A DNA stretch of 64,000 bases from Psammoneis japonica (taxonomy: Eukaryota): the NCBI GenBank assembly GCA_008632985.1, contig QPGO01000005.1, positions 186,001-250,000 of the forward strand, given 5' to 3'. This document shows positions 5,906-58,160 of this stretch, piece after piece (positions within the stretch are counted from its first letter, which is position 1; every line of letters begins with the position of its first letter). The notes beneath the pieces were generated by a model. The model made no database searches. It was not told the DNA's origin and was given only the letters and a program-made list of their open reading frames with translations. The position numbers and the translations under genes were made by a program.

Positions 5906-6053
5906 GAGAGGTTCACCTAAACGAACACCACCCGAAATCAGCGCATCATCACTTGTTCTTGTTCTGCATCCAACACGTAATCGATAGCTAAACAACCATC
6001 GCATCACAACGCATCGATATTCCGCGCTTCTAAAGCAGGTTCTGGACTATTAT

Positions 6054-15700: not shown

Positions 15701-17370
15701 CTCCATTTCTCCACTCTTGGAGCAACAACCCAAAACTGGGGAATTTTGGTCTTCAAGGAGATTTGCCAGCTCAGGGTGCCCTTCACAATTTCATTCTCAA
15801 TGAAAAGACAACTTTGTTCAAAATTTTAAAGATTCAAGGACCCCGCATCAGTGGCAAGAAATTGCAGCTGCGCCCATGCCAAAATTCTGACCAATGTTCC
15901 AACCCCTGGACAATGAGCCATGCATGGAAGGAATTGGAAAGCCCCATTTGGCCACCCCCCATCCAGTGAAAAAGACCTGCCATGGGCTCATTGTCCCTGT
16001 CCTGATGCACCAAAAGAGCTGGAAGACCTTGACGCTGCAAACGAGGAAGCAGCTCTGACACCTGTTCCCAAAGCCATTGCACCAGCCACATGGTCTGACA
16101 TCTTTTCTTCTGCAGGAGGCAAACGGTGGCTGTTTCTCACTTTCACACTTCTGACCCCACTTGACACCATCACCTGAACAAGCCATGTGCGCTGGCACAA
16201 AAATCGTGCAGATCTGGGGCTTTTCCAGCTGCTGGCTGGGATGTCTGCATTGCGTCCTGAGTTGCTGAGTGAGAAGGGGCTGCTTTGTGAGTGAGGCAGC
16301 AACATGGCTTGTTCTCTGCACTGGTCAAACCACATCTTGAATGATGGGCTCTTCCTTTGCATGCTTTTCCATGCTTTTGTTGATGAAAACACTCGGTCTG
16401 CAAGTTGGGTTCCTTGCACCACTTTTCATTCATCAAAATGTGCATTTCTCTCAGCAACTTTGACCGACAGATCTCTCTTCATGTTTTTGAGCAAGCAACT
16501 CCATTGGCCTCCACTCATTTGGCACTGCAGGCTTTGAATTTGTCCTGCCACTGCTTTGCATCTTGCCTTTTCAAATCGCAACATCTTTTTGCTGCACCAA
16601 CTTGCAGAGCACTGCTTCTGTGTCAGGTGCAGTTAGAAAGCAAGAGCATTCGCTCTCTCTGTGCTCTCCCTGTGCACCTCATCCCCAATGCTGTGTTGTC
16701 TTGAGGCACGCTTGCCAGCAACGCCAGCACAGCTTGAACATGAGTCACCACAGATGAGCTTCTTTTCTGGCCTTTTTTTTTTCACAGGGCTCTCAATTTC
16801 ATCCACATGCAGTTTCTTTTCTCTTGTGCTGTTTGACAAATCAGATGGTTCAGCACAAAAAGATCTGCACTCTCATGTCTCGCAGCTCTGAGCAGGAGAT
16901 CATGTTTCTGACACAACAACTTTGGGGTCTTCAAGTTTCCTTGCCTCTGGTCTCACATCCACCAGCTTTGGCAGAGCATGTTGCAATGTGAGTTTCAGCA
17001 ACCCAGCAACCTGCGCTTTTGTGTGTTTTGCCAATGCAACAGACACAGGGAGGCTGCCAATGTTTTGTTTTGTGGAAGGTGACTCAGATGACATTGTGGC
17101 TTTTTGTTGTTGCCGTCATTGAGTTGCTTGTTGTCACTCTGTGGACCAACACTTTCTTCACTTGTGTCTTCCTCTTGTGGTCACAATCATTTCCACTGAG
17201 GACTGTGAGTCTCAGTTGCTGCAACCCACTCCCTTGGCCTGGGAGCGGAGCTGGGAAGGTCATCTTCTGAAAGAGTGTCCTCGAACATCTCTTTTGCTGG
17301 GGCTCTGAGCTTGACTTTTCAACACGCACGACACAGCACGGGCTGGAAGTTTTTGCAGCTTGAACAAGTG
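6780..17370. other. ~10.6 kb decayed multi-gene/repeat block, extremely TpA- and CpG-depleted, origin unidentified
   Basis: Only about two dozen TpA seen by eye in >10 kb, with excess TG/CA. Six-frame ORFs are nearly Tyr-free and Cys/His/Gln/Trp-rich. Internal paralogy: ~8030-8620 with ~16420-16980 and ~9340-9640 with ~16985-17290. Confidence 0.8.
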
Positions 17371-17371
17371 G

Positions 17372-18222
17372 CACCGAAAAACTCAAAAACTGACATCATG
17401 ACGGGTGGGGTAAAGTAGATTTTGGCCATTTTATGAAAAAAAATGAAGTAGATTTTTTACTGAAGTCTTCTGGATTTCTACAGGTAAACTTAGTACAGTC
17501 TGCACGTCACCCCCAAAGGTGGAAAAAGCACGAAGAACCTGTTCTGCATAGAGTCTTATTCGCACGATATCGCGCATGACCAACCCAGATTTTCTTGCAG
17601 TGGGAGCTCGTTTTTCTGACTATTAAGTAGTTGTCAGGTAAGTAGAAGTAGATTAAGGATGGATCTACGTGCTGCGGTCTAATTTAAAATAGCTCGTATT
17701 TCCCGCACTTCACTGTGTTATTTTGACCTGCCTCGGAACACCCCCGAACACTTATGCGTTCGTCAAACCCTCATAGGGGCTGTTAGACGGCTATAAGAGC
17801 TGCACATTTAGCGCTTCAAAGGCCACTTATCGACCTATGCCCTGTTGTAAGGTCGAAAAAACCGCTAATTTTCGCTAAAATCGGGCTTCTTATGGGAGAT
17901 TAGCGGTAACTTTCTGGGAAATGCCGATAAGTAGTGGCATTTGACTGGCTATAGACATATCTACAGTCGTTAAGGTAAAAGTCGCGCATGGTCATACCTG
18001 TCTTTTAAGCATTCTAGGGTGTCTGGCGAACGGACAAAGTTCGACCGATCGCTGAAATTTTTTTTGCGAACGCGCGCGCATTTACTACGATGCATCCGGG
18101 TTATTTTTATAAAAATTACGAGCTCCCAAAAAACAGACCGCAGCACGTAGATCCATCCTTAAGTAGATTTCGAGCTATTTAGCAAAAAAACGTCATGATG
18201 TCGGAAGTTGAGTTTTTCGGTG
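17372..18222. repeat. 32-bp imperfect inverted repeat pair enclosing the MITE
   Basis: 17372-17403 CACCGAAAAACTCAAAAACTGACATCATGACG versus the reverse complement of 18191-18222 CACCGAAAAACTCAACTTCCGACATCATGACG (28/32 identical); no flanking TSD found. Confidence 0.8.
17655..18160. mobile_element. 506-bp non-autonomous DNA transposon (MITE), Mutator-like by TSD length
   Basis: Perfect 26-bp TIR AAGGATGGATCTACGTGCTGCGGTCT (17655-17680 / 18135-18160), extended imperfectly by AGCTCGTA. Exact 9-bp TSD AAGTAGATT (17646-17654, 18161-18169). No ORF. Confidence 0.92.
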
Positions 18223-19390: not shown

Positions 19391-22300
19391 TCAGTTCCCT
19401 TTCACAAGTACTTTGGAGATGCAATAATCTCTTCCTTCGTCGCCCTCGCCGGAACATCCGGGCACTGCTTCGTTGGCGCTGCGCTTAAAACAAATCAAGG
19501 ATTTGCCACAATCCGTGTCCACATCGCAGTCACCTTGACACTTCTCCAGTCGAGCTGGCGGGTCCTCAAAAGTAACTAGCTTTGGCTTGGTGGGGATCAT
19601 TGGTTGAGGAGCGGAGTTGGAGTCGGGTTTGGAGTCTCGAGGGCGCTACCATCATCCAGAATGCAGTAGTCCTTCTTGTCTTTTGCCACGCCCAGACAGC
19701 CAGGCACCGTCTCGTTGGACTTGCGACCCATACAGACTAAGCCGTCCTGGCAATCCCTATCGTAATCGCAGTCACCAACACAGAGGCCTAAAGGAAACTC
19801 TCTCCCAGACTTTACAAGTCTCATGTACGGGAGAGCAGGTCCAGTCGGAGATGCCGTCGTCGGCATCGGTGTTGGAATTACAGTTGGCTCTGGAGTAGGA
19901 TTTGAAGTTCGAGACGCCGTCGGTGTCGGTGTTGGCATTGCAGATGGCTTTGCAGTAGGAATTGAAGTTGGTTTCGACGTAGGATTAGAAGTTGAAGGAC
20001 TTGACGGCGCAGCGTCAATAGAACGTGCCGTACAATAGGATTGGCCCCGAAAGCCGCTGCCTTCACAAAAGGGAACTTCTTCGAATGCTTCGCGCCGGAA
20101 GCAGTACAAGGCACCGAAGCAATCATCGTTGCTTCTGCATAGGCCCTCACACATACCCAACGAGTTTGGGTCATGTGGCGGGATACCAATCAACGTTAAG
20201 TATTTGTCGGGAGGATAATAGTTCACAGGATTCTTTGTCGGACTCGAAGTTTTAGCTGCTGTTGGAACTGGAGTCGGGTTTGGGTTCGATGGTGTTGAAC
20301 GACGAATACAATAGTTCTTGTTGACCTTTCCACGTCCACTACACTGTGGCACTTCATCATAGCCGCTGCGGCGATAACAGAACAGGTGACTGTGGCAGTC
20401 TTCGTCCCTCACGCAGTGACCTTCGCAGAGACCGAGGGAATTTGGCGGCTGGGGTGGGTAACGAGTAATCGTCAGTTCCTTCTTTCCTACTGGTGAATTC
20501 GTTGGTGGAGAAGTTGGTCTCGCGGTAGGACTTGAAGACATTGGCTGAGCAGTTGGTGTGCGATTTGGTGGTATTTCATTCGCTTCGTAGCAGTAGCTCC
20601 GTCCTTTTCTTCCTTTGCCCTTACAGCCAGGTACCTGAAGAAATTCAAAAGAAATGGCGTCAGAGAAACCAAACGCACGTTCAACATTGAGATTTCAAAG
20701 GACATACCTCTTCGAACGCATTCCTTCTCATGCATTTTAGCCCTGGCTTACAGCTTGAGCTATTCATGCACTGGCCTTGACAGGCGTCTAGGAGTGTCAC
20801 CGGCTTGAAATTTACCCACTCGAGTTTCTTTGTGATTGGTTTAGTTGGTCGCGCAGCTTTGGTAGGCGAGGGTGTTGGAGCCATGGTTGGTTCGACCGTT
20901 GGTGAACTAGTTGGTGGACTGGTTAGTGTTTCTCTGAATATTTCAGAATAGCAGTAGCTCCTTCCTTTTCTTCCTACACCCTTGCAGCCAGGTACCTTAA
21001 GTTATACAAAAGAAATAGCGTCAGAGATACCAGATGCACATTTAACATACCATAGAGAGATTTCAAAGGACATACCTCTTCGAACGCATCCCTTCTCATA
21101 CACTTGAGCCCTGGCTTACAGCTTGAGCTATCCATGCACTGGCCTTGACAGGCGTCTAGGAGTGTCATCGGCTTGAAATTTACCCACTCGAGCTTCTTTG
21201 TGACTGGTTTAGTCGGTCGCGCAGCCTTGGTAGGAGAAAATGTGGGAGCCATGGTTGGTTCGACCGTTGGTGAACTAGTTGGTGGACTGGTTGATGGACT
21301 GGTTGGTGTTTCTCCAAAGACTTCAGAATAACAGTAGCTCCTTCCCTTTCTCCCTATACCCTTGCAGCCAGGTACCTTAAGTTGTACAAAAGCAATAGTT
21401 AAGAGAACCACACTCAGCCTCATCATACGGTAAAGACTTCAAATGGACGTACCTCTTCGAATGCATTCCTTCTCATGCATTTGAGCCCTGGCTTACAGCT
21501 TGAGCTATCCATGCACTGGCCTTGACAGGCGTCTAGGCGTATCACTGGCTTGAAGTTTACCCACTCGAGCTTCTTCTTTGTGATTTGCTTAGTTGGTGGA
21601 CCAGCATCAGTGGGAGAAAGTGTTGGAGACTTGGTTGGTTCATCAGTTGGTGTACTTGTCTGCGTTTCTCCCATGACTTCAAAATAGCAGTAGCTCCTTC
21701 CTTTTCTTCCTTTGCCCCTGCATCCAGGTACCTAAGGAATTCAAAACCGCAATAAATGTAAGAGATACCACAAGAAAGCTCAACATTGGTAGCAGACTTC
21801 ACGTCACCTACCTCTTCGAACCCCTTCCTTTTCATGCATTTGAGACCGCGTTTGCAGTTAGTATCATTGCAATGGCCTTGACAGGCTTCTAATACTGTCG
21901 ATGGCCCAACGTCTATCCACTCGAGACGCTTTTTGATTGATTTAGTTGGTGGAGTTTGATTTTTAGGTGGCAATGTTGGTGCCGGTGTTGGCTCAACAGT
22001 TGGTGAGCTCGTCGGTGGACTGGTCGACAGTTCTCCAAAGGCTTCAGAATAGCAGTAGCTCCTTCCCGTTTTCCCTTTGCCTTTGCAGCCAGGCACCTGC
22101 AGGTATTCAACATTGTCAGAGATGCCATACGACCAGCGCAACAACTGTGCAGAATGGGGGACGTACCTCTTCTTGCGCAGTCCTACTCATGCACTTCAAG
22201 CCTGGCATACAGTTCGCGTCATCATCCCCGCAATTTCCTTCGCACACGCCCAGCAAGGTTGTCGGTTTTACGCCCTTCCACACTATCCGATTCTTTGGAA

Positions 22301-30238: not shown

Positions 30239-31376
30239 TTAGATAGATCTGTTCTTGGTGACGAATCGACTAAGAACCTTTGTAACTTTGAGGCGCAATT
30301 CCTTCTTTGGTTTCTGTGTTGACCCTTTCTGTTTCTTCTTCTTGTCGTCTTGTCCACTCGCCGCAATCGTTTGGCCATTCAATTTTTTCAACGCGTCCTT
30401 TGCCGCATCTTCTGATTCAAAGGTGATGTAGGCTTGTCCCTTACAACGCCCAGTATCTGGAAAGGTAACTAGTTTGGCGTGAACAAGTTTTCCACAATCA
30501 TGTGTGCTCACCAATGCTTCCAAATCTTTTGCCTTGTATTCAAACGGAAGTCCCGACAAAAACAACTTGTTGGCGTTGGGTTCGTGCAAGCCCCGCAGCT
30601 TTTTGGCAACAGCATTTGTTCCTCGAACCGTCACCTTGTCGGGACAATCGTAAATCCAATGACGCGGCTCGTGTTTGTTCTGACAAGCGCTGCAAACATA
30701 ATCGTCCGGTACGGGCTTTTTGCAACGAGCTTTCTTCTTACTGCTGCTACTTCTTTGATCCTCGGGGGCGCGTTCCTCTTTGACATGATCGATCTCTTCA
30801 ACTACTCCAGTACTTGTATTTTTCGTTTCTTTCATAACTTTTTTCTCGTTGTCATGGTCGTCTTGTTCAGCAACATTAGTATCGTCCACGTTTCCGTCTC
30901 CAAAATAGAGTGTCTCCTCGTGTTTTCGTTCCAACGCTTCAAGACGTGACTGTTCTTGAGCTTCCTTTTTTGTAGGTATGGGAGTCAAACCATGCTTGAC
31001 ACGCTTGATCATTCTACGAATCTGTGATTTTGTGTACGCCACTCCGTCCTCGTTGACTTGAGGGAGTTTGGCAAGAATGGCTTCCTTTTCCTCCTTTTTC
31101 TCTTGACGTTTTCGTTTGCGCAACTCCTTTTCGTCTTTTTGTGGCTCTTCTTTTTGATCCTGCTGAGTAATAGGCTGTGCTGTTTCTTCTTCGTCTTTGG
31201 TTTTCTCGGCGTGCTTGCGTTTCTTCTTGCTTTTCTTTTCCTTTTCTCGGGTGACTTGGTGGTTGTCCTCGTCTTCTGCGGCTTTGCTCTTTTCCTTGCG
31301 ACGCTTCTTCTTTTTTCTCCATTTTATCGCGCTTTTCACTCGAATCGTTTCCCATTGTAAGCTCTACAGCTGTCAT
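30239..31376 (-). CDS. Lys-rich RNA-binding protein with CCHC zinc knuckle and RRM (probably nucleolar)
   Basis: CSACQNKHEPRHWIYDCP; RNP2 KLFLSGLP and RNP1 KGQAYITF; K/E-rich N-terminus; frameshift near 31310. Confidence 0.85.
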
Positions 31377-31439
31377 GTTCTGATTTGGAATGTAGGTTCG
31401 TTTGACTCTCTGTCGTTCCTTGCTGAAGATTAGGGAGTT

Positions 31440-34400
31440 AGTTGCCTGCTTCGAGATAATCGCCTCTTGTTTGTGTTGTTATTATTTAAGGTGTCTATGG
31501 GGTTGGTAGTTGTTGTGGTGGGGAAATAGGTGGTGGAGGAGGCGCGCGTAGCGCGCTGGGAGAGGGAGAGAAAAAGGGTTGGCCGAGGGTGCGGACAGAC
31601 GGTCGTGAGGAGGAGTTGGTGATGGTGGGATGGCGGAGGAGGAAAGCTTGACATGTAGAGAGATGGTTGGAGAGAGCAAAGCCAAAATTGAGACTGAGGA
31701 TTTGGGAAGCCCAGAGCAGGGGTGTTGCTGCATGACAGGAGGAGCCGAAGTGATCGGGTGAAAGTTGTTTCCAGGCCGCGTTGGATTGGGCGAGGAGGTT
31801 GGAAGGAGCCAAAAGGGAGTTGGTGCAGGCGGAGAAGGATGCTTGCAAGTTAGACAAAGAGGATGGGTTGGACCAGGGCGGTTTTGGAGGGAGGGGCGGG
31901 ACGGAGGAAGAGGCAGTGGTGGAGGTGCCAAAGAAAAAAGACATGGAAGTGACATCCAATGCCTCCGAGGTGGTCGAAGGCAAAAGGGAGGAGGAAGAGG
32001 CCTGCTTGGTCAATGGCGTCAATGACGTCAGAGCCATGAGCAGAGGATGTAGAACGGCCAAGGAGCTTGTCCCGAGTGCTGCTGAGGTGAGCCTTGTTGA
32101 GCGGGTTTTCAGGGACAGGCAAACCAGGTGCAGGAGGCGGGGGAGCGGGTGGTGCAGTGATGTCAATTGCCAGGAATTGGTGGGTGGATGGGGCGTTTGG
32201 TGGTGTGGAGCCGGGAGCAAGTTGGACGCCGACGTCGGCGGGGCGTTTTAGAGGGTGGTCGGGTGGGAGTCCGGCAGGGTCGAGGCAGACTTGTTGGCGA
32301 GACCGGCAGAGACCGCACATGAGGCCGAGGGTTTCGATGACAGCGCAGACAGTGTCACGGATGTGGTTGGACAGAGGGCCTTTGTGCATTTTGGAGCAAG
32401 CGAAGGCGTGATCGCCGCACGGGTTGGGGCGGGCGTGGCCACATGGGCAGTTGTGTTGGGAGAGGGTGGATGGGACAATGGGCAGGTGAAGCTTGCGTCG
32501 GAGGAGGATTGTGAAGAGGTGTGGCGGAAGGCGGTTGGAAGTGGGGGTGCGGGACAGGGAGTGAAGGCACAGGCTTGTGAGTGGGGACAACAAGGATGGG
32601 AGCGCCGGTTGGATGGAAGGATCAGCGAGGAGTGGGGGAAGGGTGTTGTGCGCATGATGGTGGAGGTGAAGGCGCTGTGAGAGACCGCGCAGGGTGTGGT
32701 GTTTGACAGCGTGTGGGAGGGAGGTGAAAGAGGAAGAGTCAAGTTTGAGAAGGGTGGGAGGGCAGTGGCGGAAGATTTGGCAGAGGGAGAGAGTAGAGCG
32801 AGGGTTGGACCATGAACCAAGAGCAGCAGAGCGGCTTGAGGGAAGGCGGAAGATGGCGCCACCAGTGAGTGGGGTGCCATGTTTGGTGCAGTGGATGGAT
32901 CGGAGGAGGGAGGTGATTGGAGCGGGGACGGCAACTGTGGAGATGTCTCGACATCCAATGCCGCCTGAGGAGATGGGCAGGGTGGCAATGAGTTTGGAGG
33001 CAGATGGGAATGGGTCAGCATGTTGGGTGAGGCAGGTGAGGAATCGGAGGGAGTGGCCGATGATTTGGTCGGTGAAGGGGGATGCCCATTGAAAGGGGGG
33101 TGGGAAGTCGTCGGAGCGCAGAAGATTGCAACATGCATCAGCGGATGGCAGGTGGGTGATGGAAGGGATGGAGCACTTGCGGAAGAGGGTGCTTTGTGTT
33201 TGTTTGTCGGTGAGGCGGACGGTGAGGCGGTGAAGGTCGGTGGCAAAGGAGGTGGCCTTGTTGTGAAGGAAATCGAGGGCGAAAGCGGGTGAGCCGATGG
33301 GTCGACCGTGGAAGCGGGTGCCGGTGGTGATCTCGGATGTGACATGGGGACTGTTGTGGGGATTTAGGAAGGTTAAGGCTTCGGAGAGTGCGGCGGCGTT
33401 GGTGGGTGGGAGGCGGTAAATGGGAGAAGAGCCGGTGATGGATGTGAGAATTTGAGTCTTGGAGGTGTTGAGCTTGATGCCAAATTGGGGGCCGCAGGTG
33501 GAGAGTCATTTGAGGAACCAAGGGAGCTGGGAGAAGGGAAGGAAGATGTGGGTGTCATCAATGTATGAAGAGGCAGCAGATTTGGAATGGGGAGGGAGTC
33601 GATGACATAGTTCATCGTTGATGGGGTGGAATGCGTGAGCCAAAACAAGGCAGGAAAAGGCAGGGCTGAGGGGGCAGCCTTGAGCAAATCCCTCGGGTTG
33701 AGAGAAGGAGGACCATTGCAAGCGGTGGTCACGGTGCCAGCAGGTGTTAGGGTCTTGGCAGAGCAAGTCGAAGAAAGGCACAAGAGGGCGGTGCTTGTCG
33801 GAGTTGTCGAGGGTGTGGCGACAGGCATCACGGGAGCATTCGTTGAAGCAATTGGATGGGTCAAGGAGGAGGAGAGCTTTGGTTGGCGTGGAGTCTGGTT
33901 GAAAGAATCGTTCGATGTTGGCACAGGTGGTGTCGACTGGGCAGTCGAGACCTCCTTTGACGCCGACTGCGAATTGGCCAGAGAGCAGGAGGTTGGCAGC
34001 AAAGGTGGCGGCAAAAAGGAACATGATGAGGGTGCCGACGATTCTGCGAAGGGCTGCTCCGATGCCGATGGGTCGAAGCTTGGAAAGGTTGGATGAGTCT
34101 TTGTGGAGAGCAAGGAAGCAGTTGGAAGAAAAGACAGGTTTGATGGATGTGGGGACATCCGCTGCAAGAATGAGATCGAGCAGATGTTTGAAGGTGAGCA
34201 AGTGGGGGCAGGAAGTGGATGTTGGCGTGGAACGGCGGTGGAGGGCGCAGGTCTTGAACAGGTCGGTGGAATCGGCAAAGGCGCCGGGTGCTTTGCCTGG
34301 TTGACATTTGGCGAGGGCTTTGCGGAGATCATCGGTGGTGCAGTGCAGGGGGGAGGAAGCAGATCGTTGGTGTCGGGCAGAGGGGGGGGAAGGTGGCGGT

Positions 34401-36282
34401 GGGTGTTTCCGGGGTGGATAAAGTTGCTTGACAAGTTCCATGCGTTCGGGGGTGAGAGAGGCAACGGGAAGGGAGGAGGTGGCCCGGGCGCAGGCGGCAT
34501 GAAGGTTGTTGACGTTGGCGGCAATTTGGGCGGAGTGGGCGTGGGATGTGTTGTCAAAGTCGGGAGGTTCGTCAGATGTGTCTGGGACAGGTGTTGAGCG
34601 AGATTGGTCACAGAGGGTGCGGATGGAACCGTTGCGGAAGAGGAAAAGACGTTGTGTGATGGTGGTGGAGAGAGGGATGTTGGAGTTCTTGGGGCATGGG
34701 TAGAGGATGAGAGATTCAAAGAGGAAGAGGAGCTTGAAAAAGGGTCGGAGGCCGTTTGCCAAGAAGGGGGTGGGTCGTCGGCGGGGTCGAAAGGCTCAGA
34801 GGAGTCAACAGTCCATTGGATGAGGTGATGGAGGGTGAGAAGGACCTGGAGGCAAGAGGAAGGGGGGAGTTTGTGCCAGATGGAGGCACGGAAGGGCGGG
34901 GGTGACAGGGGCAGTGAGTGGAGCCACTGAAGGGAGGCTGTCCAATCAGCAAGCTCTTGGCATGGGCAGGAGGATGCAACGAGCTGAATGTTGGCAGTTG
35001 TGCGGGGTTGAAAATGGATGTTAGAATGTGGGTGTGCAGGTGTGTGTCACGGAGGCATGTCTTGGTGGTTCGTTGGCAATGTTGGCATGGGTGCAGGTCA
35101 TGGAGCTCAAAAAAAGAGTGGGGATGGTGCGGAGGCTGCGGTGTTTGTGTGCAGAAGAGAGATGCATGCGCAGGAGCTTGGGCACTTGAGGCGGAGGAGC
35201 ATTGGGCGGGAGGGAGAAGGAGCAGCCCTCAAAGGGGCAGGAGCAGTTGGCAACCCCTGGCGGGGTGCAGGTGCCGATGGGTTCCATTGCTGGAGGGTGG
35301 GGCGAAGTGTGCTGGAGTCTTGATTGGTGTCGGCAGCCTGTTGGGTGAGTGTGGACCACTCGGCAAGGTGTGTGGGAGCAAAGGTGTGGACCCATTGGTC
35401 GAAGACATCGAGAAGCTCGAGGTCGCACTGAGAGCACTCAATGTCCACATCGGGCGGGTCGGGGTGTGATGTGCGTTCGTGGGTGTGGATGGGGCGGTGT
35501 GTGCCAAGGTGGGAGTGTTGGTGGTGAAAGTGTCGGGGTCCATGGCAGCAGTTTCAGAGGAAAACGTGGAGCCGTCGAGGTCGGGAGGGTGTGAGCGTTT
35601 CTTGCGTTGTTGAGAGGGGGGCGTGGGGGTGCTGATGCATGTCGGTGTGGTTGGGGACAGTGGCGTGGGTTGCCAGGAGGCTTCGAGGAAGGAGAGGGCT
35701 GTTTCGGACAGGGTGTCTCAAGAAGGTTGAGAGGTTGCTTGGGCAAAGGACGTGGATGTTCGGGCAGGGGAGGGAGGGGGGCGTCAGGAAGGGAGGTCCT
35801 TGATGAGGTGTTTGGGGATGTTGGGACAGAGGTGGAGGGTGGCATCAGTGATGTCCACGACAAACGGGGTGGCGAAAAAAAGGAGCTTGTGTCAGACCGG
35901 GGTGTCACTGTGAGAAAAAAAAGGGGATGATGCCAAAAAGGTTGGGGGTGGTGAGAAGTTCGTAGCAGTCGGAAGGCGCGGAGATGTTGAGGTGGCTCGT
36001 GATGATGATAAAGCTTGCAGGCGCGTGGCGATGGGAAGGATTTTGGGAAAGGAAGGGAAGGGGACAACCGAAAGGGAAAGGCCGAGGACGTGCATGATCG
36101 GAGGCGGCGTGTTGGAAGGTTGACGATGGATGGAAAGGAGGTCCACATTTCGGGCGTGGAGGTGGTGAGGAAGTAAATGTCAGACTGGGGGATCTTGGCG
36201 GTTTGGGCGGAGAAAGTTGGGAAGCGGGAGGGGCGGACGCCCTTTTTTGTGGCCGTAACCTTACGTCGTCTTGTCGTGTTGG
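31440..36282 (-). mobile_element. CRE-clade non-LTR retrotransposon (C2H2 finger, RT, CCHC, restriction-like endonuclease), frameshifted and TpA-depleted
   Basis: C2H2 finger CPFEGC...LRMHLSSAH. RT motifs LRPIGIGAALRRI, QFAVGVKGG, LLLDPSNCFN, GFAQGCPLSP, SYIDD. C-terminal CPCGH...GDHAFAC, KRPADV, AIDIT, LLPFAFDHLGGIG. Candidate TSD AGGGAGTT at 31432-31439 and 36283-36290; ends are tentative. Confidence 0.9.
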
Positions 36283-36502
36283 AGGGAGTTCTGATGGATG
36301 GCAAGACCATCAAAATGTGACTCGATCGAATCAATCAATCTTAAAATTCGCGCGCCCTCGTTCGCGCGAAGGAGGACGCGATCAGCCATCACCAGCCACG
36401 AAAATCTCACAAAAAAATGATGCCCATGATCGCAGCGGCCGTCATTCTCAATTCCATCCGCTAAAACAGAAACAAACATAACTCTCTAACCACCACTGCA
36501 CC

Positions 36503-39065
36503 ATGACTGGTTCTACGGAAATGTCGTCAGAAGCTGATGCTGCTGCAGGTACTATTATAAAGAAAAAGACTAAGGATACAAAGCGTCAACGACGAAAGGT
36601 TGTCAATCCCTCCAACACATGGCCGCAGCAACCCCGTATCCAATCGTCCGAGGCTCGCGCCAAGGCATATTTGCGTGTCGCTGGATTGGGAGGCGATTCA
36701 TCATCCAAAACAACAAAGCAACAACAAGAACTCCTCGATCCATCGCTCGACATGGACTCGCCTGAAATGAAATTTGGTCGACTGCTCGGGGGTACCAATC
36801 AGCGAAAACGACACGAGACGGTCAAGAAATTGCAACTCTATCTCAAGGCGAGATGCGATATTCAAAACGAACAAGGAGGAATCAGTGAATTAGATCTACT
36901 AAAGTTATGGAAGGTAAGGTGATTTATAGTGACTTACTTGTATGTGTGTGGGGTAATGCTTGCTGTATATCGACTGAAATACGGATTCGTTTTCTTCTCA
37001 CGCTTACTATCCTACTCGTTTTTTACAGGCTCTTTGGTTTACACTCTACATGGCAGATAAAGTTCCAGTGCAGGACGAGTTATCCAAACGTTTAGCAGAA
37101 TTAATCTGGTGTGTAGCTGGAACAGAAGAAGAGGACGAGTATGCAGGACAGGCGTACATGGCCATGTGTGGCGAACCAGAGGAGAGCAGCGGCTTTGGCT
37201 TTAGCGAGGACAATGATGTCATTATGGAAGAAGTTGTAAACACACTTGAAGAGTCTTCTGAAGAGGAGGAGGAGGAAGATGATGATAAAGAGGAGGAGGA
37301 GAAGTTGGACAAAGCAGAGGAAGACCACTTGGATAGCGACGAGGAGGAACAAGACGACGACGCGGACGGTGGCGCGGTCCAAGAAGACGACTGGAACGTG
37401 CGACATTGTCGTGGGGCTCATTTAGCGTCACTATTTGTCAAGACATTCTTTCGAACTATTCAAAGGGAATGGGGGAAAATGGACAAGCATCGAGTAGACA
37501 AGTTCTACACTCTCATCCGTCTCATGATGCAACAGGTAAGGAGTTTCAGGCCACTGTATGCTTATGTTCAATCATGGCCCGTCCCGTTCTGAGAATGAGC
37601 CTGCTGTTGATTCCTTTAGATATACCGATACATGGCTGTTCGGCATTGGAGTATTGGCATCATTCGATTATTCAATGATGCAATCTTTGAAGAAGTCCTC
37701 AGTAAAACACCCAATGGGCTCCGATACCATTTGATTGACATTTGCTTGGAAGAGCTGGTCCGCGCCAATGCAGCAGCACCCATGCCTCTGACGGAGGCCA
37801 CCTTTCTCGATTGCATGGAGCCGTACTTTGCCATGGTACAGTCGGTACAGGATGCTATTGTTCAGGAACGAGTCATGAACAAGGTTCTATTGAAATTCTT
37901 GGAGGATCACTCGGTCGTGAGTCTACCAGACGAAAAGGACCTGGAAGGTAATAATGACATTTTGGATCAGGTTCATGTCGGTAGTGTTGCACAATTTATT
38001 TTTGAATTGGCAAGCAACGAGGAAACGCGAGATCGATATCGCAAGGGGCTCTATGAAATGCACAAGATTTACGCCAAGCGCCTCAAGAAAGTTGGACGCG
38101 ATGTAGTTCTGGATGATGGGAGTGACATCAGCTTGGGTATGATCCACGGGGAGGAAGGAGGCGATGGTGCAGATGAGGTGGCGGAGCCAGAACAGAAGGA
38201 AGACACGCCTCGTGTCGATGTTTCAAAGAAAAAGCACAAGAAGGAAAAGAAGAGAAAAGATAGAAGTAACAAGGAGCAGCGGAAAGGACACGAGACCGAC
38301 CAGGTTGATGCCGATGGCAAAGAAAAGAGCAAAAAGGAAAAGAAGAGAAAAGAAAGAAGTGACAAGGAGCAGGATAAAGAACAGGAGGCCGACCAGGTTT
38401 TTGCCGATGGCAAACAAAAAAGCAAAAAGGAGAAGAAGAGAAAAGACAAGGAGCAGGTTAAAGAACAGGAGGAGACCGACGAGGTTGAAGTCGATAGCAA
38501 AGAAAAGAAGGGAAAAGACAGAAGTAGCAAGGAGCAGGTGAAAGAACGAGGGGAGCCCGGCGCGGTTGAAATTGATGGCAAAGGAAAGAAGAAAAAGAAG
38601 AAGCGCAAGAAGAAATCACTCGACCAAGCGGAAGCAATATCCTCGACTGACAATCTTGGCGACGAAGCTCCTTCTAAAAAGAAAAGGCGCAAGAAGAAGG
38701 AAGAAATGCAGGCAGCGAATCAAGAGGAGGAAGAGGTTGTAATATCATACTCGGAGCAAAAGAAAGCAGCCAAGGCTGCTGCCGAGGCAGAGGAGAAAAA
38801 GCAGAAGTCGGTGGCTCCCGAGACCAAATCAAAAAAGAAGAAAAAGGATAAACACGCGGAGGGTGATGAGAAGAGGCGGGTAAGCTTTGGGGCTTTTAAT
38901 CGTAGCAAGTCTCACAAAGCGTCCATGAAAGCTTTGAAGACAACTGTGCCACCTAGTACGTCTACTCACTCCCCTCAAAGGGGTATCTTATTGAAGAAAG
39001 GCAGTCGTCAGAGCACCGGTGGCATCCAAAAGAAAGCACGAAAACAAGCCGTCGATTACTTCTAG
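36503..39065 (+). CDS. RRP1: Ribosomal RNA processing protein Rrp1/Nop52
   Basis: ELDLLKLWK(A)LWFTLYMADKVPVQDEL and FFRTIQREWGKMDKHRVDKFYTLIR; K/E-rich tail with RRVSFG; introns ~36914-37029 and ~37536-37619. Confidence 0.9.
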
Positions 39066-44655: not shown

Positions 44656-46885
44656 CTACGACCTGGAGTTGCCATTCGCCTTTTCCAGCTGGCGCTGATA
44701 TTCAGCCCAGTCGTCGTCATAGGTATCGGGTTTGGTCCAAGTCGTTTCCCTTGATTTACGGTTGTAGTAGTAGTATCTGCCTGATTTCTCATCCAAAGCA
44801 GCTTTCCAAACTGGTTTCTTGACCTTAGTCGGAGTAGGAGGCTTCGCTTCCTGTTTATATTGTTCTTCCAAACTTAACAACCAAGACAATCTGTCTTTGA
44901 TCAAATCTTGGCTTACATCGCCTCCCGAATCCTTCTTGGGAGTTTCTACTAGACGTTTCTTTTCTTCATCGATCCAAGCAAGCCTCTCGGCAATTAACGC
45001 CGAACTTACCTGTGCTCCGTCGCTATCCTTCTGCGGAACTTCAGCGAGACGCTTCTTTTCTTCTTCGATCCACTTCATACCTCTGCAATCAATTCATTGC
45101 TCACACGAACGTCCTCGTTATCCTTTTGAGGAGCTTCCGAAAGCCGCTTCTTCTCCTCTTCGATCCAAGCCAGTCTTTCGGCAATTAAATCCGTGCTCAC
45201 CTGCACTCCATCATTATCCTTCTTCGGAGCTTCTGCGAGACGCCTCTTCTCTTCTTCGATCCATTTCATTCGCTCGGCAACTAAGTCATTGCTCACATGG
45301 ACATCCTCGTATCCTTTTGTGGCGCTTCCGAAAGACGTTTCTTCTCCTCCTCAATCCACGCAAGGCGCTCGCTGATGAGTGCGCTGCTGACGTTAGAATC
45401 ACCATCGCTTTTGATTGGGATTTCTGAAAGGCGCTTTTTCTCTTCCTCTATCCACTTCATTCTCTCGGCAATTAAGTCTTGGCTGACAACAACATTCTCC
45501 TGAGACTTTCCAGTCTCGAGTAGCCGCTTCTTCTCTTCTTCAATCCAAGCAAGTCTTTCGGCAATTAAATCCGAGCTAACCTGCACTCCTTCCTTATCCT
45601 TCTGCGGAGCTTCTGAGAGACGCTTCTTTTCTTCTTCTATCCATTTCATTCGCTCGGCAATTAGCTCATTGCCCACATGAACATCCTCCTGATCCTTTTG
45701 CGGAGCTTCCGAAAGTCGTTTCTTCTCTTCCTCGATCCAGGCAAGGCGCTCGCTGATGAGCGCGCTGCTGACTTGAGCATCACCATCGTTCTTGGTTGGG
45801 ACTTCTGAGAGACGCTTCTTCTCCTCCTCGATCCACTTCATTCGCTCGGCAATTAAGTCTTGGCTGACAACAACATTCTCCTCAGACTTTCCAGTCTCAA
45901 GTAGCCGCTTCTTCTCTTCTTCAATCCAGCAAGCCTTTCGGCAATTAAATCTGAGCTCACCTGCGCTCCATCGTTATCCTTCTGCGGAGCTTCTGAGAGA
46001 CGCTTCTTCTCCTCTTCGATCCACTTCATGCGTTCTGCGATCAACTCATTGCTCACATGAACGTCCTCGTTATCCTTTTGCGGAGCTTCTGAGAGTCGCT
46101 TCTTCTCTTCCTCAATCCAGGCAAGGCGCTCACTAATGAGTGCGCTACTCACTTGAGCATCACCACCGTTTTTGGTTGGGGCTTCTGATAGCCGCTTTTT
46201 CTCTTCTTCGATCCACTTCATTCTCTCGGCAATCAACTCGTTGCTAACATGCACATCTTCGTTCTCCTTTTGAGGAGCCTCTGAAAGACGCTTTTTTCTG
46301 ACTCAATCCAGGAAAGGCGTTCACTGATCAAAGCTGAACTGACAGCTACATCGCCATCCTCTTTTTGAGAAGCCTCAGATTTACGATTCTTTTCTTCTTC
46401 GATCCATGCAAGACGATCTTCGATAAGTGCGGAACTGACATGGACTTCCTCTTTGACGTCTTCCTCCTTCTTGTTTGCTTCATCCAACCATTTCATACGA
46501 TCTTTTACAAGCGTTGAACTCATTTGAACCTCTGAGTCACCTTTCCTGGGAGATTCCTCCTTCTTGTTCGTCTCATCGAGCCACTTCATTCGATCCTTGA
46601 CAAGTTGCGACCCTGTTGGTTTTCCTTGCGGACTTGTCGTCGTTTCTTTCTCCTTTTTGTTGGTCTCGTCAAGCCACTTCATGCGTGAGCTAATAAGCGA
46701 GCCTTCACCTTTCTTTACAGGCTGAGGGGCATGATCTGTAGCATCTTCTTTCTTCTTGCCAAATGCACCAGAGAGCCATTGCATCTTTTTCTTCACGTCA
46801 GAAACTCCAGAATCATCCGCATCGCCTTCTGATCTGCTTGGGTCGGTGCCTCTTCACCTTGCACAACGCGCTCTTCGTCAACCAT
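44656..46885 (-). CDS. Tandem ~31-aa repeat protein with C-terminal WW domain
   Basis: Roughly 20 repeats of VS..LI.ER(MK/LA)WIEEEKKRLSE.P.K; WW domain WKAALDEKSGRYYYYNRKSRETTWTKP; several frameshifts; probable ATG 46885. Confidence 0.8.
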
Positions 46886-48519
46886 TATGAAATCCGCAGT
46901 GTCTTGTAATATGGATGGGACAAACTAGAGGGAACGAATGTAGTTAGCAGCGATACCGTCGCTGCCACTTGCCATGAGAAGGAAGCGAGGAATGACTGCT
47001 TTTCTTGCAATGGCGACGCCACGTTTTTCGTCGGACGTATGCATTCGTACCGTACCGTAGGCCGTAGTACAAATTTGGTATTATTCTCAAATTGTGATAC
47101 TCACTAGCTTATAGTATCTACAAGTTTTAAGATAATTGAATGCTCTGAGTCTTGCGAGTAATCCTAGTAGCTCGCGGTTTCATCCGTTTCGTGCGTAGAA
47201 ACCTACGTACCGGTACGACTCTCGCAGCATACAAACAACGTGAGCTTTTTGGAAATCAATCCGCGGCCGAGGTCGCAGACCGCAGACCACCATCGCCAAG
47301 AGCTTTCCATGTTACTCGCAATTGACCGAAGCAAGCAGCAAATCACAAAGCGCTGTTAATTGACAGGAAGAAATTCTGTGACATGGAGAGGACCAACTCT
47401 GGTGGCAAAGCGTCGAAGTCGTCGACGTGGCTCTTGTGGTGGGCGGGAGCAGGATGGACTGTGCTCATCGTTGTCGTTGTTGAACGATCTGACGTGGGCG
47501 TGTTTTGATCGAGAGGTGTCAGATATGACAAAGACGACATCACTGCAAACACGCTCACCAAGACAGCCAAATCCCACCCAGTTGATTGAAACAATCGCCA
47601 ACAACACCTTGCAGTTGGACCAAGTGCCTCTGCTGTTTCCCAAGCCTGTTCGTTGCCTGGCAAGAACATCCTCGTCTCATCAGGAGAAGAACATCCTTTA
47701 ATTGCATCTCAAGGGGGTTGCTGCCACTGTTGGCGCAGGTGTGAGAGGAAGCGAAACACTCGCCCAGCGTCTCGTTCATTCATGAATTCAGCGGGCATCA
47801 CTCTCATGGTTCCAACGTGAATGTCATTTCACGTGGCCACGGCACGAGGCCTTCCTTCACTAAAAATCGACATTGTAGTGCCATGCTGTGGCCCCAGCCT
47901 GCAAGAGCCGTTTCGAGCTGTAGAAGAGAGAAATCAATTGACAATTTGGCTGAATCGTTTGGCAAACGCCGAGAAAATCAAAGCCTGCCACACTCTTGGT
48001 CTCGCCTGCATCTGGAAGACTCCGTTTCAGTTCATCAACAGCTCGATTGACAATCTGGTCTACGGCTCTTGTGGGAATTAGAGCAGAGCACCCATCGGCG
48101 TGGGACATGTGAATCTTTTCAGCCTGCGTGAAGAGCTGCAGCGTTTTGATTTGCCAGGCAAGCCTTTCTAGCCGACATGCACAACCCGTCAATCCTTGAG
48201 CGCATGGTTCTAGATTTTTGCTGATCGACTTGATCATTGACGAATTGACGACAACAGAGATGTCCAATCAAAAGAAAGGGAATTTAAAGAACAAAACCTC
48301 TTTGCAATGGGAGTCCCCAGACAATCGCTTTCTCCAGAGTCACGTCATTCCGACGGCAAATCATGCCCACCATTCTTGGAGTCATTTGCCTCTGAAGCAG
48401 CAAGGAAGCTGAATTTTTTGGATTGCTGGAACTGCTGAAAGATTCATCCACAGGTGTGGCTTTGTTGGGCAAAGCCAATTTCTTTTGCGAAGATCCAATG
48501 CTCGGCGCCATCGTGGCTT

Positions 48520-48680
48520 GTTGTTGTGGCGGCGAAGCCATCGAAACGCTCAATGTTGCCATTCTCATTCCTGTGCATGCAATGGTGCAAGCTCTGCAAT
48601 TGGGCATGTTCGCAAATGACGGTCAAATTCGGGTGTGTTGGATGACCCCATGCAAGCTGAAGGATGCATGATTTGAGTGA
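48520..48680 (-). pseudogene. Protein kinase fragment (subdomains IV-V, TKL-like)
   Basis: CILQL...PNLTVICEHAQLQSLHHCMH resembles the kinase hinge pattern PNL.I..EY...GSLY.YLH if H/C are restored to Y. Confidence 0.5.
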
Positions 48681-48704
48681 AGGATTGGTCCTGTCTCTGG
48701 ATTG

Positions 48705-49200
48705 TAAACTGGGGCCTTTCTCTTGATGAATGGGGTGCTCAGAAGAAACCGCATGTCTCACAATGTGGACTCCTGTTGTCTCCTTTTTACCAAATCAAGG
48801 GAGAGCCACCAGTTTTTGCTCTTCAAGGTGCTGCAGCCATTGCAGGATGGCTCCGCGATGACTTTGCAGGTCGGTGACAGCGCCAAAGACATTGCAGATT
48901 TGGCGCCTTAAGCCGATGACGCTGGAGGGTTGCGGTTTGTCCCTGTCTTTGCCAACTTGCTGGCTCCACAATGGGAGGAGAGTGTGCGTGGAATGATTGT
49001 TGGACACACGGGCATCTCACCAAGGCGAATGTTGCAAGTGCAGCAACAGAGGCGGCAGTGTTTTAGTGTTCCAAGGTGTTTGACGCCATGGCCGCTGACT
49101 CGGGAGCTCCTCTTTCAGAACTTCGTGTAGATGGGGGCATGGCTGCCAAATCTGACTTTGCTGTTCTTGGCCAACATCTTGGGAATTGCATGTCCCTGCC
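48705..49200 (+). pseudogene. glpK: Glycerol kinase (FGGY C-terminal domain) fragment with stops and frameshifts
   Basis: TGAFLLMN, GLLLSPFYQIKGEPPVFALQGAAAIAG-WLRD, GGLRFVPVFANLLAPQWEESVRGMIVG, TKANVASAATEA, DAMAADSGAPLSELRVDGGM, LANILGI, in the canonical GlpK order. Confidence 0.88.
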
Positions 49201-51807
49201 TTGGGAGGACTGCACGTTGGAAAAGTGACCTCCATCGAGGGCAGCGCAAGGAGCAAGAGACCGTGCTCAAGGGATCGTCTGTGGCCTCAAGATTGTCAAT
49301 GAAGAAAAAACCAACATTCAATGTGGTCATCAATTCTGTTCGTCTCACATCCTCTAGTCACCCTGATGCGTGCACATCGACGTGCTCAACAAGGCCAACT
49401 TCGAAGACAAGCTCGAGGATTCTGATTGGAGACTTGTTGTGCTGCTGAAGGAGGCATTCAACATTGTCTGGCCAGGTGATTCTTCACCTCAAAAAAAGGA
49501 CAAAGGGAGCTTGGTGCCATCAGACAAACAAGCTCACTGATCTAGAATGTTTCGTTCATCTCTGGAGAGCAATCTAGCCAGCTGCTTGAGAATTGCCATT
49601 CTTCTGTTGCTCCGCCAGTTTTGGCAGAACACGAACAATCCACAAAAAACACAAGGCAAACAGCGCCGAAACAGTCCAGCACATGCTGAATGTGTCTTGG
49701 AGCATCCCGCAACGAATGCCCCATCGTGGACCCAATCTGAAAAAAGAGAGCGGTGTGGCACAAAAACATAAACGACGGCATCAAAGGATGCAACAACATC
49801 GCAATGAGCACTGCGACCGTCATCGCAGTCTGTTGACTCACGTGCGGAACAACTTGAGCACAAACAGAGATTGCTGTGCTGCACTTTTAGTCTTTCTACA
49901 TCTGTTGTAAAAGTTCAAAGTGTGTTTCAAATGTTTGAAACACGCCAATGTCAAAAGTTGATGGAAATCGGTCGTGCAGGATGACGTTGCCTCAAGAGCA
50001 CCATCAAAAGATGGAGCTCAAGCTTTTGCGCATCTTCAGAGTGAAACATCACCCCAAAAAAATGCAAAAGGGGGGACGTGCTGTGGAGACAACAAGAAAA
50101 CTTGCGAGTCAACCGCATGCTAAATCAACACTCCCTGCGAGTGAAGACTTGCCGCATCATGTCACTGATGCGACGGAACCCCAAACCCCGCGTTCCGTCA
50201 ACGGTGTGATCTGCTTGGCGAGCTTTTGCTGCTTCGCAGACGAACGCTGCTGTCTGTTTCAACAGCCATGACCTGACGGGTCAAGCGAACAGGCAACTTC
50301 CTGCGGTCAAAGACACAGGAGTGACATGGACTCCAGGCCGGAGACACGCGCTCGATTTGCCCCGACCTCCGGACTTCTTAACTGGCGACACCCACGCCGC
50401 CTGGAGACAACACGTCATCAAGCAAATGAGTTGCATAACTGCCAAACAAGAGCAAGCTCTCAATCCAGAGGAAGGGCGAGCCATCCTTGGAGATTGCGGC
50501 ATTCTGGCTTGGCAAACAACAAACACATGGTGCGAGACGACAGCTGTGAGCGAAAACGAGCACGAAAGAACAAAAAGCGTTTTTGAAGAGATTTTGGTTG
50601 TGTCATGACCGTTGCCAAATTTCTCAATCACTGTCACTTTTGTGTATCCTCGCAGAATTGTCCCGTGGTTTCGTGTGTAGAACAGAGTTTAGATGGAACT
50701 TGTGCTTTCAAAATCAGTGCAGCACCAATTCCCACGCACCCTTCACGGCAGATGGAGAGTGCGTGATCCAAACGCTAAAAACTAAAAACTGCCACCGCCA
50801 ACATTGTGAAACAGGATGTTCAGGATGTGTGGATGACGCAACCTGCACATGGCACAATCAAAGTCGCTTGGAGCAATGATCAAGAGAAAAATGCAAAGTG
50901 CAGCCAATGTGAGGCAAGGCGAGCCTGCAAGTCCGTCAGGCTGCGCGAGTCGTCAAACATTCCAATTCCATTGCGGTTCGCCCGTACAAGAGCCTTTCTT
51001 CCTCTCTGTCACCGATTCGGATGCCCAAAGGCAACCAAGATTTCCGCATGTCTGATGGAAGCCCCTCAAACACACTCCGTGTGGGATTGTTGCTCCCCAG
51101 TTCAACGTCTCCCATGTACAGCAGATGATGTCACAGCACCCAAACGTATCATGACATGCTCATTGCGTACCCGGGGGTTTATTCGTGACACCGTGACACG
51201 AAACCGCAGGGTGCTTCTAGTGTCTTTAAAGGCCTGTGGCACGTGGATCCTTTGCGAGTGAACAGGAACTATGGCGCGTGCATTGTCGCCACGCTATTTG
51301 ACTTTGAGGAAGTTCGAGAAAAATCGACGTGACCCGCATCTTGAATCTGTCCCAGAGCATTTTCATTGAAGCTGCAGAGTCAGTCGTCGGCCGCAAGCAC
51401 GAGAGCTGGTTTGGAGGGAAGCGTTTCGCATCTCGGCTTCAACCAAGTGTTACAAAGCCAGCTTTGGCACACGTTGTGCGGAATAGCTGCCGCGAGGCAG
51501 GAATGCAGCGGAAGTTACGTTTTCCTTAGGAATGTTGTGACCTTCATCACTGTAAGGTTTCATGCTGATACTTTCGGGATCGGATCTTGTTTACAGATGA
51601 CACGTTCTGCATAGCGACGAAAGTGTAGCCGCCTTCACTGGTTCACGTTCAACACGGAAAAGAATGCGTCGAGAATCAAGCTCTGCAGTCCCTAGCTCAG
51701 TGTTTTTACTTAGCAATAAGGGGAGCCACGAGTTGCTCGAATGATGTACAGTCGCTCGCTTTGTTATAAAGGAGTGTTACAAAGAAACTCTATACAGTAG
51801 AGCTTTT

Positions 51808-56835: not shown

Positions 56836-57873
56836 CTACGAGATGGCGGGACAATCTGGACTGACAATAGCGGGTTGCGCTTCTTCGTCTTCTCCATTGT
56901 CGTTCATCAGCAGTTGATGAAAAATGTCTTGTTGGGAAATGAGGAGGCTTTGAAAACTCGGGCGCTCGGGAAATGTTTCCTCAAACTCCTCAGACGCTGC
57001 ATCAGCGACCTCCTCTCCGAGAAGAGCATCGTCTGCAGCCTCTTGTATGCGTACGCCGCCGAGTTGAAGACGCAAGGACTGCGCAACCATGCTTCTGGCG
57101 AACTTGTTCTCCACTTGGATGTATGAATTTGAGCCCGGATGGTACCGAAGGAAGCGCCCGCCACACTTCTGAACAATTGTGACAATCTTTTTCAAAATAC
57201 GTGTCTTGTCGGCTCTCACAGTGCACCTTTCGTAGTGTCCACGATAAAGATTAACAACGAAACCAAGTCGCCGATTACCTTCATGATCTTGGATCTTCTT
57301 GCTTCGTCCACAGAGAACGTCGACGCTCGTGGGTTCGAGAATCGTGTCTTCCGCGCCGGGGTGAGATACGATGGGTGCCGTCATGGTGGATTCACTATGA
57401 GAAGCAATGCCTGAGTTGATCGACGGCAAAGTCACACCCGCCGTGTTGTTCTCGACCTCCTCACGTCGTTCGGGCGTTGCGTCGGCGACCTTGGTCTTGG
57501 CAACAGCGTTGACTGTAGGACGACTCGCATCGTCTGATACGTCGTCGGGTTGAAACCGGAGCGAGTGAGAGACCTTGTCTCTGGCCACTGCGTTGTCCAC
57601 TTGAATATATGCTTTTGAGGCTTGATCGTACCGAAGAAAACGTCCGCCAGACGCTTGGATGGTTGTAACTATGAGTTGCGAGAGACGCGTCTTGTGTGTC
57701 CTCGAATCGTAGCTTTTGTAGTGCTCTCGATATTGACCAACGAGGAAACGAAACCGACGATTGCCCTCATGACTCTGAATCTTTCTTCCACGTCCAAAAA
57801 GCACATCCACGCTTGTGGGCTCGTGTATCACGTCTTCTGTTGTCATGCGGTTCGGCTTGCTGGATTTCGGCAT
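56836..57873 (-). CDS. Protein with two DUF6824-type domains
   Basis: Two copies of DVL(F/C)GR....HEGNRR...V..YR.HY...KT.....IV...GGRFL...Y.QV...AR..V...LR, a family expanded in diatoms; start uncertain. Confidence 0.8.
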   Translation of the reverse strand: MPKSSKPNRMTTEDVIHEPTSVDVLFGRGRKIQSHEGNRRFRFLVGQYREHYKSYDSRTHKTRLSQLIVTTIQASGGRFLRYDQASKAYIQVDNAVARDKVSHSLRFQPDDVSDDASRPTVNAVAKTKVADATPERREEVENNTAGVTLPSINSGIASHSESTMTAPIVSHPGAEDTILEPTSVDVLCGRSKKIQDHEGNRRLGFVVNLYRGHYERCTVRADKTRILKKIVTIVQKCGGRFLRYHPGSNSYIQVENKFARSMVAQSLRLQLGGVRIQEAADDALLGEEVADAASEEFEETFPERPSFQSLLISQQDIFHQLLMNDNGEDEEAQPAIVSPDCPAIS

Positions 57874-58160
57874 GGCGTCGTCGTTGCTGGTGTAACAAGT
57901 AAAGAAGGAGTCGGTGATAGCCAAAGCAGTAGTCACAGTGTCGCTGCTGAAACAGACTGAGTCGGGTAATGCCGTTGATTTTATTTGAATCGCCTCGTTT
58001 CATAGAAGGAATAATTTGTCCAACTATGACTCATCGAAAAATTTAGCCGCGATGGAAAATTCAAATTCCAATTCGAGTGGAAGCCTGCACTAAAAAAGAT
58101 GTCAGACAACGTCAAACACTGAATTAAAAAGCACAACAGACAATCCGTCAAATCGTACTA

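Follow-up and report, generated by a model that had tools for sequence, protein, structure and literature searches.

Why does a retrotransposon that looks otherwise ordinary almost entirely lack the dinucleotide TA, and nearly all of the tyrosine codons that depend on it, while it keeps its CpG? This question is raised by a non-LTR retrotransposon (LTR, long terminal repeat) located on the minus strand of a 64,000-nt stretch of DNA from Psammoneis japonica (GenBank assembly GCA_008632985.1, contig QPGO01000005.1, positions 186,001 to 250,000), referred to below as the window; all positions are those of the window. Based on its sequence and on comparison with its relatives, we consider that the near-total lack of TA in this element is probably the footprint of a strand-symmetric, TpA-directed A:T-to-G:C process that acted on DNA in what is probably a diatom.

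TA is depleted and CpG is retained

In the 4,391 nt between positions 31560 and 35950, the sense (minus) strand of the element contains 14 TA (observed-to-expected ratio [o/e], 0.07), 213 CG (o/e, 0.77), 232 TG (o/e, 1.65), and 485 CA (o/e, 1.30), which bears out the initial annotation of this DNA, where the interval had been described from its letters alone as poor in TpA and rich in CpG. The entire copy (31499 to 36208) has 20 TA in 4,710 nt, whereas 1,000 mononucleotide shuffles averaged 202 and never fell below 164. Over the two spans used, the o/e values ranged from 0.07 to 0.09 for TA, from 1.29 to 1.65 for TG, and from 1.30 to 1.58 for CA, i.e., TpA is low, and CpA and TpG are high. The depletion is confined to the element and has sharp edges, with TA at normal density in the flanks, on one side as far as 31549 and on the other from 36256 onward, and with a TA o/e of about 0.5 to 0.6 in the genes flanking the element. 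The untranslated ends are as depleted of TA as the coding part, in which the observed and expected numbers of TA by codon position were 4/45 (positions 1-2), 4/40 (2-3), and 3/38 (3-1). A purine follows on the plus strand in 19 of the 20 surviving TA, a proportion that is not clearly above the expectation from composition.

For comparison, we used nucleotide relatives from metagenome contigs, comprising 31 match regions and 80 whole loci (L001 to L080), and the depletion is absent from them. Specifically, the TA o/e over the match varied from 0.33 to 0.81 among the 31 regions (0.33 to 0.62 in relatives of the same composition), while the whole-locus value in the 80 relatives varied from 0.21 to 0.88 (median, 0.69), with none of the 80 having any 1-kb window below 0.2. 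In comparison, the CpG o/e of the element (0.77 to 0.84) falls within the range of the relatives (0.43 to 1.26). Since CpG is at the level normal for the family, the TA loss is separable from CpG decay, in agreement with the earlier proposal that it precedes, or is independent of, CpG deamination.

The sense strand is poor in G in all 31 related match regions (10 to 17% G and 24 to 46% C), and the ten closest relatives, with 36 to 46% C, are similar to the element. Accordingly, the GC skew of the element (about 0.5) was rejected as a sign of hypermutation damage because the skew is common to all 31 relatives examined. Among the relatives L001 to L080, there are subgroups that are either C-rich or A+C-rich, and Pro, Thr, His, Leu, and Ser are accordingly abundant in their proteins.

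Tyrosine gives way to cysteine and histidine

Since TAY codons are the only ones with an obligatory TA, the trace of TA loss in the protein is the replacement of Tyr by Cys and by His. The element has 4 Tyr codons among 980, together with 38 Cys and 56 His codons, and its relatives have 1.7 to 3.6% Tyr. We defined consensus-Tyr columns as those with Tyr in at least 60% of the homologues (n = 10 columns) and compared nine homologues leave-one-out. The residues of the element at these columns are one Tyr, four Cys, two His, two Phe, and one Leu; thus, it keeps Tyr at 1 of 10, compared with 51 of 67 for the homologues (Fisher p = 1e-4). The consensus columns other than Tyr are kept by the element in 272 of 381 cases (71.4%; homologue range, 62.6 to 82.5%), and the predicted protein is thus ordinary apart from its tyrosines.

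Both mutational directions are observed. Among the columns with Tyr in at least three homologues, 12 carry Cys or His in the element, namely, nine Cys (A>G on the sense strand) and three His (T>C on the sense strand). The replaced near-invariant columns include one with Tyr in 9/9 homologues and one with Tyr in 8/9, and one of the three Tyr-to-His columns has Tyr in eight of nine. The Tyr of the catalytic YIDD motif survives as TAC (TA at 33564), consistent with its earlier description as one of the few survivors.

The initial annotation had further named five peptides of the element in which Tyr was the plausible ancestor, and had read changes on both strands as the mark of a process acting on double-stranded DNA, as opposed to editing of the RNA intermediate. 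All five peptides are found in the translation, and for most of them the homologues carry Tyr at the position in question, with neither Cys nor His as the usual residue. Tyr ancestry is clear for FFDLLC (9/9 Tyr) and AAC (3/5 Tyr), only plausible for RTLC (Tyr and His in two each of four homologues) and CWH (Tyr and Phe in four each of nine), and ambiguous for SNC (3 Tyr and 4 Arg of 8), where a change of CGC to TGC is equally possible. With Tyr-to-Cys and Tyr-to-His changes representing both strands rather than one, the reading of a process on double-stranded DNA is supported, the DNA level being what the sequence comparisons suggest.

A further case comes from the least TA-rich relative, the metagenome contig L060 (L060:64-1042; TA o/e, 0.21; CpG o/e, 1.02), whose DNA is ~70% identical to that of L008 and L007. 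Where L008 and L014 both have TA (17 sites), L060 has CA at nine, TG at three, TC at three, and TA at two, and the changes in its protein include PYFD to PCFD and CWY to CWH. Judged from these replacements, the putative scar recurs in L060, which represents another lineage of the family, independent of the first.

Structure and copies of the element

Homologues were searched for with residues 150 to 900 of its read-through translation. A total of 8,000 candidates were scored at a cut-off of E ≤ 1e-3, which yielded 13 proteins (best E, 6.6e-129; identity, 30 to 42%), with PF00078 present in 9 of the 13. In the reverse transcriptase (RT) frame of the element, the match to PF00078 (RVT_1) had an E of 9.2e-06 and a score of 25.9 bits, short of the 29.6 required by the cut-off. 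A profile of the element and nine homologues, compared with solved structures, gave five distinct matches, all five of which were R2-type (best E, 1.2e-05; RT core only). The N-terminal motif CPFEGC...LRMHLSSAH is one that we take to be of the C2H2 zinc-finger class, and a C-x2-C...H-x3-H pattern is found at the N-termini of homologues P0002, P0003, and P0005. In the C-terminal part, residues C783, C785, D791, D795, and C800 are invariant or near-invariant in alignment A1, and the KRPADV and AIDIT motifs presumably belong to a restriction-like endonuclease (RLE) fold; no Pfam endonuclease family was matched in the Pfam scan of the element. The column of the lone in-frame TGA that separates the RT frame from the C-terminal frame (Table 1) holds R, H, D, Y, F, K, or T in the homologues. 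The order of zinc fingers, RT, CCHC motif, and C-terminal endonuclease motif, as read from the sequence, supports an R2-like architecture of the RLE type, and the element is probably an R2/CRE-like non-LTR retrotransposon.

Table 1. Features of the retrotransposon copy and TA-poor blocks of the window
Feature	Position	Strand	TA o/e	CG o/e	Basis and remarks
Whole non-LTR retrotransposon copy	31499..36208	minus			Unique-flank contigs of sequencing run X1 end at 31498 and restart at 36209
First C2H2-like zinc-finger motif (CPFEGC...LRMHLSSAH)	35147..35239	minus			N-terminal; RT frame; motif search
Second zinc-finger-like motif (HPCQHC...HLHTH)	35028..35093	minus			Frame differs from that of the first finger; motif search
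N-terminal conserved segment (LQWLHSL...PPPFR)	34738..35034	minus			Third frame; tblastn of P0003 and P0005, and motifs
Open frame with RT domain	33506..34795	minus			PF00078 and homologues; YIDD at 33554-33565
Lone in-frame TGA between RT and C-terminal frames	33503..33505	minus			Open reading frame list; read-through alignment
C-terminal part	31850..33502	minus			CCHC, 32396-32449; KRPADV, 32225-32248; AIDIT, 32153-32173
C-terminal protein tail	31555..31896	minus			Another frame; tblastn of P0005 residues 1136-1217 and P0006 residues 991-1098
TA-poor block	2925-5917		0.09	0.22	
TA-poor block	7156-17448		0.03	0.10	
TA-poor block (retrotransposon)	31528-36255		0.09	0.81	Dinucleotide block scan of the window
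TA-poor block	48080-51116		0.13	0.71	
TA-poor block	62300-64000		0.07	0.37	

Copies of the element were examined in an independent public sequencing run (X1), in which half of the sampled words of the element are present. In total, 1,140 X1 contigs were placed over positions 31000 to 37000, flanks included, at 80% likeness, and they were divided by likeness into four classes of 228, 253, 326, and 333 contigs. The summed X1 depth was 61 to 70 in the flanks; within the element it was 235 to 400 at the 5′ end and climbed to ~3,900 at the 3′ end, i.e., it was 4- to 60-fold over the flanks and increased toward the 3′ end. This profile is that of a multi-copy, 5′-truncated retrotransposon family.

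In the stretch from the first zinc finger to the RT, the window copy has three frame changes. At the change between 35147 and 35093, an extra base at 35119 is present in all of the X1 depth of 209, and extra bases at the other two sites are found in 172 of 347 (35024) and 311 of 346 (34736/34738). Homopolymer runs adjoin two of the three sites, namely, 34736/34738 and 35119, the latter lying directly after A7. Because X1 contigs carry an extra base at all three sites, the frame changes are either private to the window copy or slips of the assembly; other copies probably read through them, and the window copy may be less broken than it appears.

Among the X1 contigs, variant places comprised 792 transitions and 244 transversions. 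We examined 37 of the 1,038 variant places (40 with three that lay beyond the element and were dropped) and 12 of 28 indels. The window has TG or CA where other copies have CG at 13 of the 37 places, and the reverse was found at 3 of the 37. Other copies have TA at only two well-supported places (32919 and 34611) and at one minor place (31810), and at 34588-34589 the CA of the window is replaced by TG in a single contig. These counts hint that, if the 37 places are representative, the private changes of the window copy are mainly CpG decay, and that TA loss predates its split from the nearest copies. Tentatively, much of the TA loss seems to be common to the copies of the family, not private to the window copy.

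Further TA-poor blocks in the window

The block scan revealed five TA-poor blocks that together cover 22,752 of the 64,000 nt (Table 1), with a TA o/e of 0.57 and a CG o/e of 0.97 in the remainder of the window. Three of the blocks (2925-5917, 7156-17448, and 62300-64000) display TG and CA o/e values of 1.6 to 1.9 without strand skew. Three internal repeat pairs (7788-8514/16215-16908, 9345-9640/16986-17289, and 3347-3982/4754-5364) are ~69% identical and differ mostly by transitions, and the top double mismatch in each is CA versus TG (13, 21, and 14 cases, with the next class at 3 to 7). Such mismatches are expected if, in each copy on its own, an ancestral TA or CG became TG or CA. The block at 7.2 to 17.4 kb may represent the ruins of an element that carried terminal repeats.

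The block at 48080-51116 resembles the retrotransposon in being TA-poor with most of its CpG kept, but it lacks a strand skew, and the 47- to 52-kb region yielded no repeats. Pfam searches returned nothing informative for 34 open reading frames (ORFs) of the 3- to 17-kb region or for the six frames of 9.6 to 16.3 kb, and the 23 ORFs of 47.7 to 51.3 and 61.2 to 64 kb gave only a weak match below the cut-off, to PF15952 (50779-51261). A 262-aa open frame at 63214-63999 encodes low-complexity nonsense.

Elsewhere, the window contains diverged tandem repeat arrays at 44903-46685, 20588-22212, and 38189-38612, with 65 to 80% identity between units; the array at 45 to 47 kb is C-rich on the plus strand and has a TA o/e of 0.32 to 0.35. 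On the minus strand, 56836-57999 encodes a protein in which DUF6824 occurs in two stretches (E, 9.5e-47). The protein-atlas clusters nearest to it are most frequent in Bacillariophyta, and this single protein is the basis for regarding the host as a probable diatom; for a ketoacyl synthase, the atlas returned only clusters of bacterial type, which were of no use for taxonomy.

A TpA-directed process and its alternatives

We propose that adenine in TpA was targeted on either strand. Attack on the A of the sense strand would turn TpA into TpG, and attack on the A of the other strand would turn it into CpA. The process would be separate from the decay of methyl-CpG: the element keeps its CpG, and other blocks appear to have lost both dinucleotides, leaving TG and CA as the only pyrimidine-purine steps. 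The agent could be a nucleic-acid adenine deaminase or a modifier of thymine, and most of the TA loss would have built up in a lineage that was still transposing, so that the family would now be nearly free of targets.

The choice of agent leads to the nearest alternative. 5-Hydroxymethyluracil is found preferentially at TpA in dinoflagellates. If the thymine of TpA were modified, by 5-hydroxymethyluracil formation or a base-J-like hydroxylation, it could mispair and give T>C with no deamination of adenine, and a strand-symmetric attack on either base of TpA yields the same TG and CA products; we nevertheless regard this as unlikely, because the preprint on the chlorarachniophyte Bigelowiella natans favours an ADAT2-like adenine deaminase and makes no mention of hydroxymethyluracil (Mettrop et al., bioRxiv 10.64898/2026.01.13.699255). 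The present data do not separate adenine deamination from thymine modification. Avoidance of UpA has been argued for RNA viruses and cytoplasmic RNAs. Selection acting on CpG and UpA in RNA is reportedly the topic of one paper (PMC3829696). Selection against UpA or TpA in an active lineage of the element (e.g., if RNA were cleaved or sensed at UpA) would require no special mutagenesis, and the family does look alive, as it is multi-copy and 5′-truncated, shows normal conservation outside Tyr, and has kept the YIDD Tyr. However, such selection would have to pay for the loss of invariant Tyr at the columns with 9/9 and 8/9 Tyr, the untranslated ends and blocks without coding signal are equally depleted, and the old repeats differ by CA-versus-TG double mismatches, as independent mutation predicts. 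In addition, mutation alone gives the signature in B. natans, as the preprint reports (10.64898/2026.01.13.699255), and selection as the sole cause is therefore quite improbable.

An A-to-I editing of the retrotransposon RNA by ADAR- or ADAT-type enzymes before reverse transcription would fit a preference for U before the edited A (UA to UG) and the larger size of the Tyr-to-Cys class (nine columns), but editing of a sense template cannot yield T>C on the sense strand, which is nonetheless seen as Tyr-to-His at three columns; moreover, L060 has TA-to-CA at 9 of 17 sites, and TA-poor blocks without an RT signal exist, which leaves RNA editing very unlikely indeed. We give just as little credence to an artefact, i.e., systematic base-calling errors at modified bases in the assembly, or to plain composition, with a C-rich sequence and C-ending codons. 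The window does have likely single-base indel errors in homopolymers, and the family is very C-rich; yet the independent run X1 gives 228 pieces at a likeness of at least 99% over 31000 to 37000, flanks included, relatives of the same composition have a TA o/e of 0.33 to 0.62, and the replacements fall exactly on Tyr columns.

Several points weigh against a TpA-directed process on both strands of DNA. The ratio of Cys to His replacements (9:3) is asymmetric, although a 1:1 ratio is not significantly contradicted by it. The homologues used for the ancestral states are only 35 to 43% identical, with only Tyr codons being informative, and the TG and CA o/e values by codon class, examined as a test for selection during mutation, lie inside the range of the relatives, with no clear excess of the products of TA loss. 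The distinction between shared and private TA loss is drawn from 37 of the 1,038 variant places, with no other copy read at full length, and the four TA-poor blocks other than the retrotransposon had no Pfam match in the tested ORFs and frames, so that a mobile or foreign origin for them is unproven.

If a TpA-directed process did act on the family, it is possible, though we hold it to be doubtful, that the element is an escapee, i.e., that its lineage kept transposing while it shed TpA targets under a TpA-mutating host defence, with even invariant Tyr being replaced by Cys or His and TA being kept only where it is indispensable (the YIDD Tyr), until it became nearly immune. Were this true, the TA- and CpG-free blocks of the window would have lost out in that conflict, and diatoms would run a TpA-directed genome defence beside CpG methylation, to which mobile elements adapt by purging the dinucleotide. 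The family offers a natural test case of whether a mobile element can escape a defence by losing its target dinucleotide.

Comparison with known systems

The R2 and CRE/SLACS/CZAR elements have the same domain order as the element described here (zinc fingers, RT, CCHC, and C-terminal endonuclease). Identity to R2 is restricted to the RT core, and the placement with CRE is a label only. No spliced-leader or ribosomal DNA target was seen at the insertion site, and a literature search found no report of CRE in diatoms.

With regard to the mutational signature, fungal repeat-induced point mutation (RIP) likewise has sharp limits and a dinucleotide context, strikes both strands, and is confined to DNA that is repeated or mobile. 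It differs in its chemistry, since RIP causes C>T changes, mainly CpA to TpA, and enriches TpA, whereas the A:T-to-G:C changes considered here destroy TpA. RIP was rejected as the cause, TpA being depleted in the element and not enriched. ADAR hyper-editing and APOBEC activity share with our case the clustered, deaminase-type transitions in retroelements, and ADAR also prefers a 5′ U; however, the target of these enzymes is a single strand of an RNA or cDNA intermediate and their signature is limited to that strand, whereas both directions are seen here.

The closest parallel is the hypermutation of nucleocytoplasmic large DNA virus (NCLDV) and virophage DNA in B. natans. According to the preprint, two integrated viral regions in mutation-accumulation lines mutate ~1000-fold faster than the rest of the genome, A>G and T>C changes, every one of them at TpA, account for 230 of the 231 mutations in these regions, and reverse transcriptase, endonuclease-RT, and DDE domains are overrepresented in TpA-depleted coding sequences; its authors propose a defence in which DNA is attacked by an ADAT2-like adenine deaminase (Mettrop et al., bioRxiv 10.64898/2026.01.13.699255). 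The two cases agree in the change of TpA to TpG or CpA on both strands, in depletion with a gain of CpA and TpG in clustered windows, in affected DNA that, for the retrotransposon at least, is foreign or mobile and includes RT-bearing coding sequences, and in CpG not being involved. They differ in host (a rhizarian versus a probable diatom, i.e., a stramenopile, with diatoms not being mentioned in the preprint text) and in target, which is integrated viral DNA in B. natans and here a multi-copy non-LTR retrotransposon, known from its sequence footprint and not from a mutation rate. The depletion is also far deeper here, with an o/e of 0.03 to 0.13 in the blocks of the window compared with a Rho of 0.45 reported for the B. 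natans NCLDV region, and some blocks of the window have nearly lost CpG as well.

A full-text literature search found no report of TpA-specific hypermutation in diatoms, or in retrotransposons beyond that preprint (10.64898/2026.01.13.699255). The window suggests that a TpA-directed process has also operated in a stramenopile, almost to completion and separably from CpG decay, and the Tyr-to-Cys/His scar in the protein may be an easy target for screening. Compared with B. natans, the new aspects are the different eukaryotic lineage, the near-complete depletion, and a retrotransposon family that apparently multiplied after its TpA had been lost.

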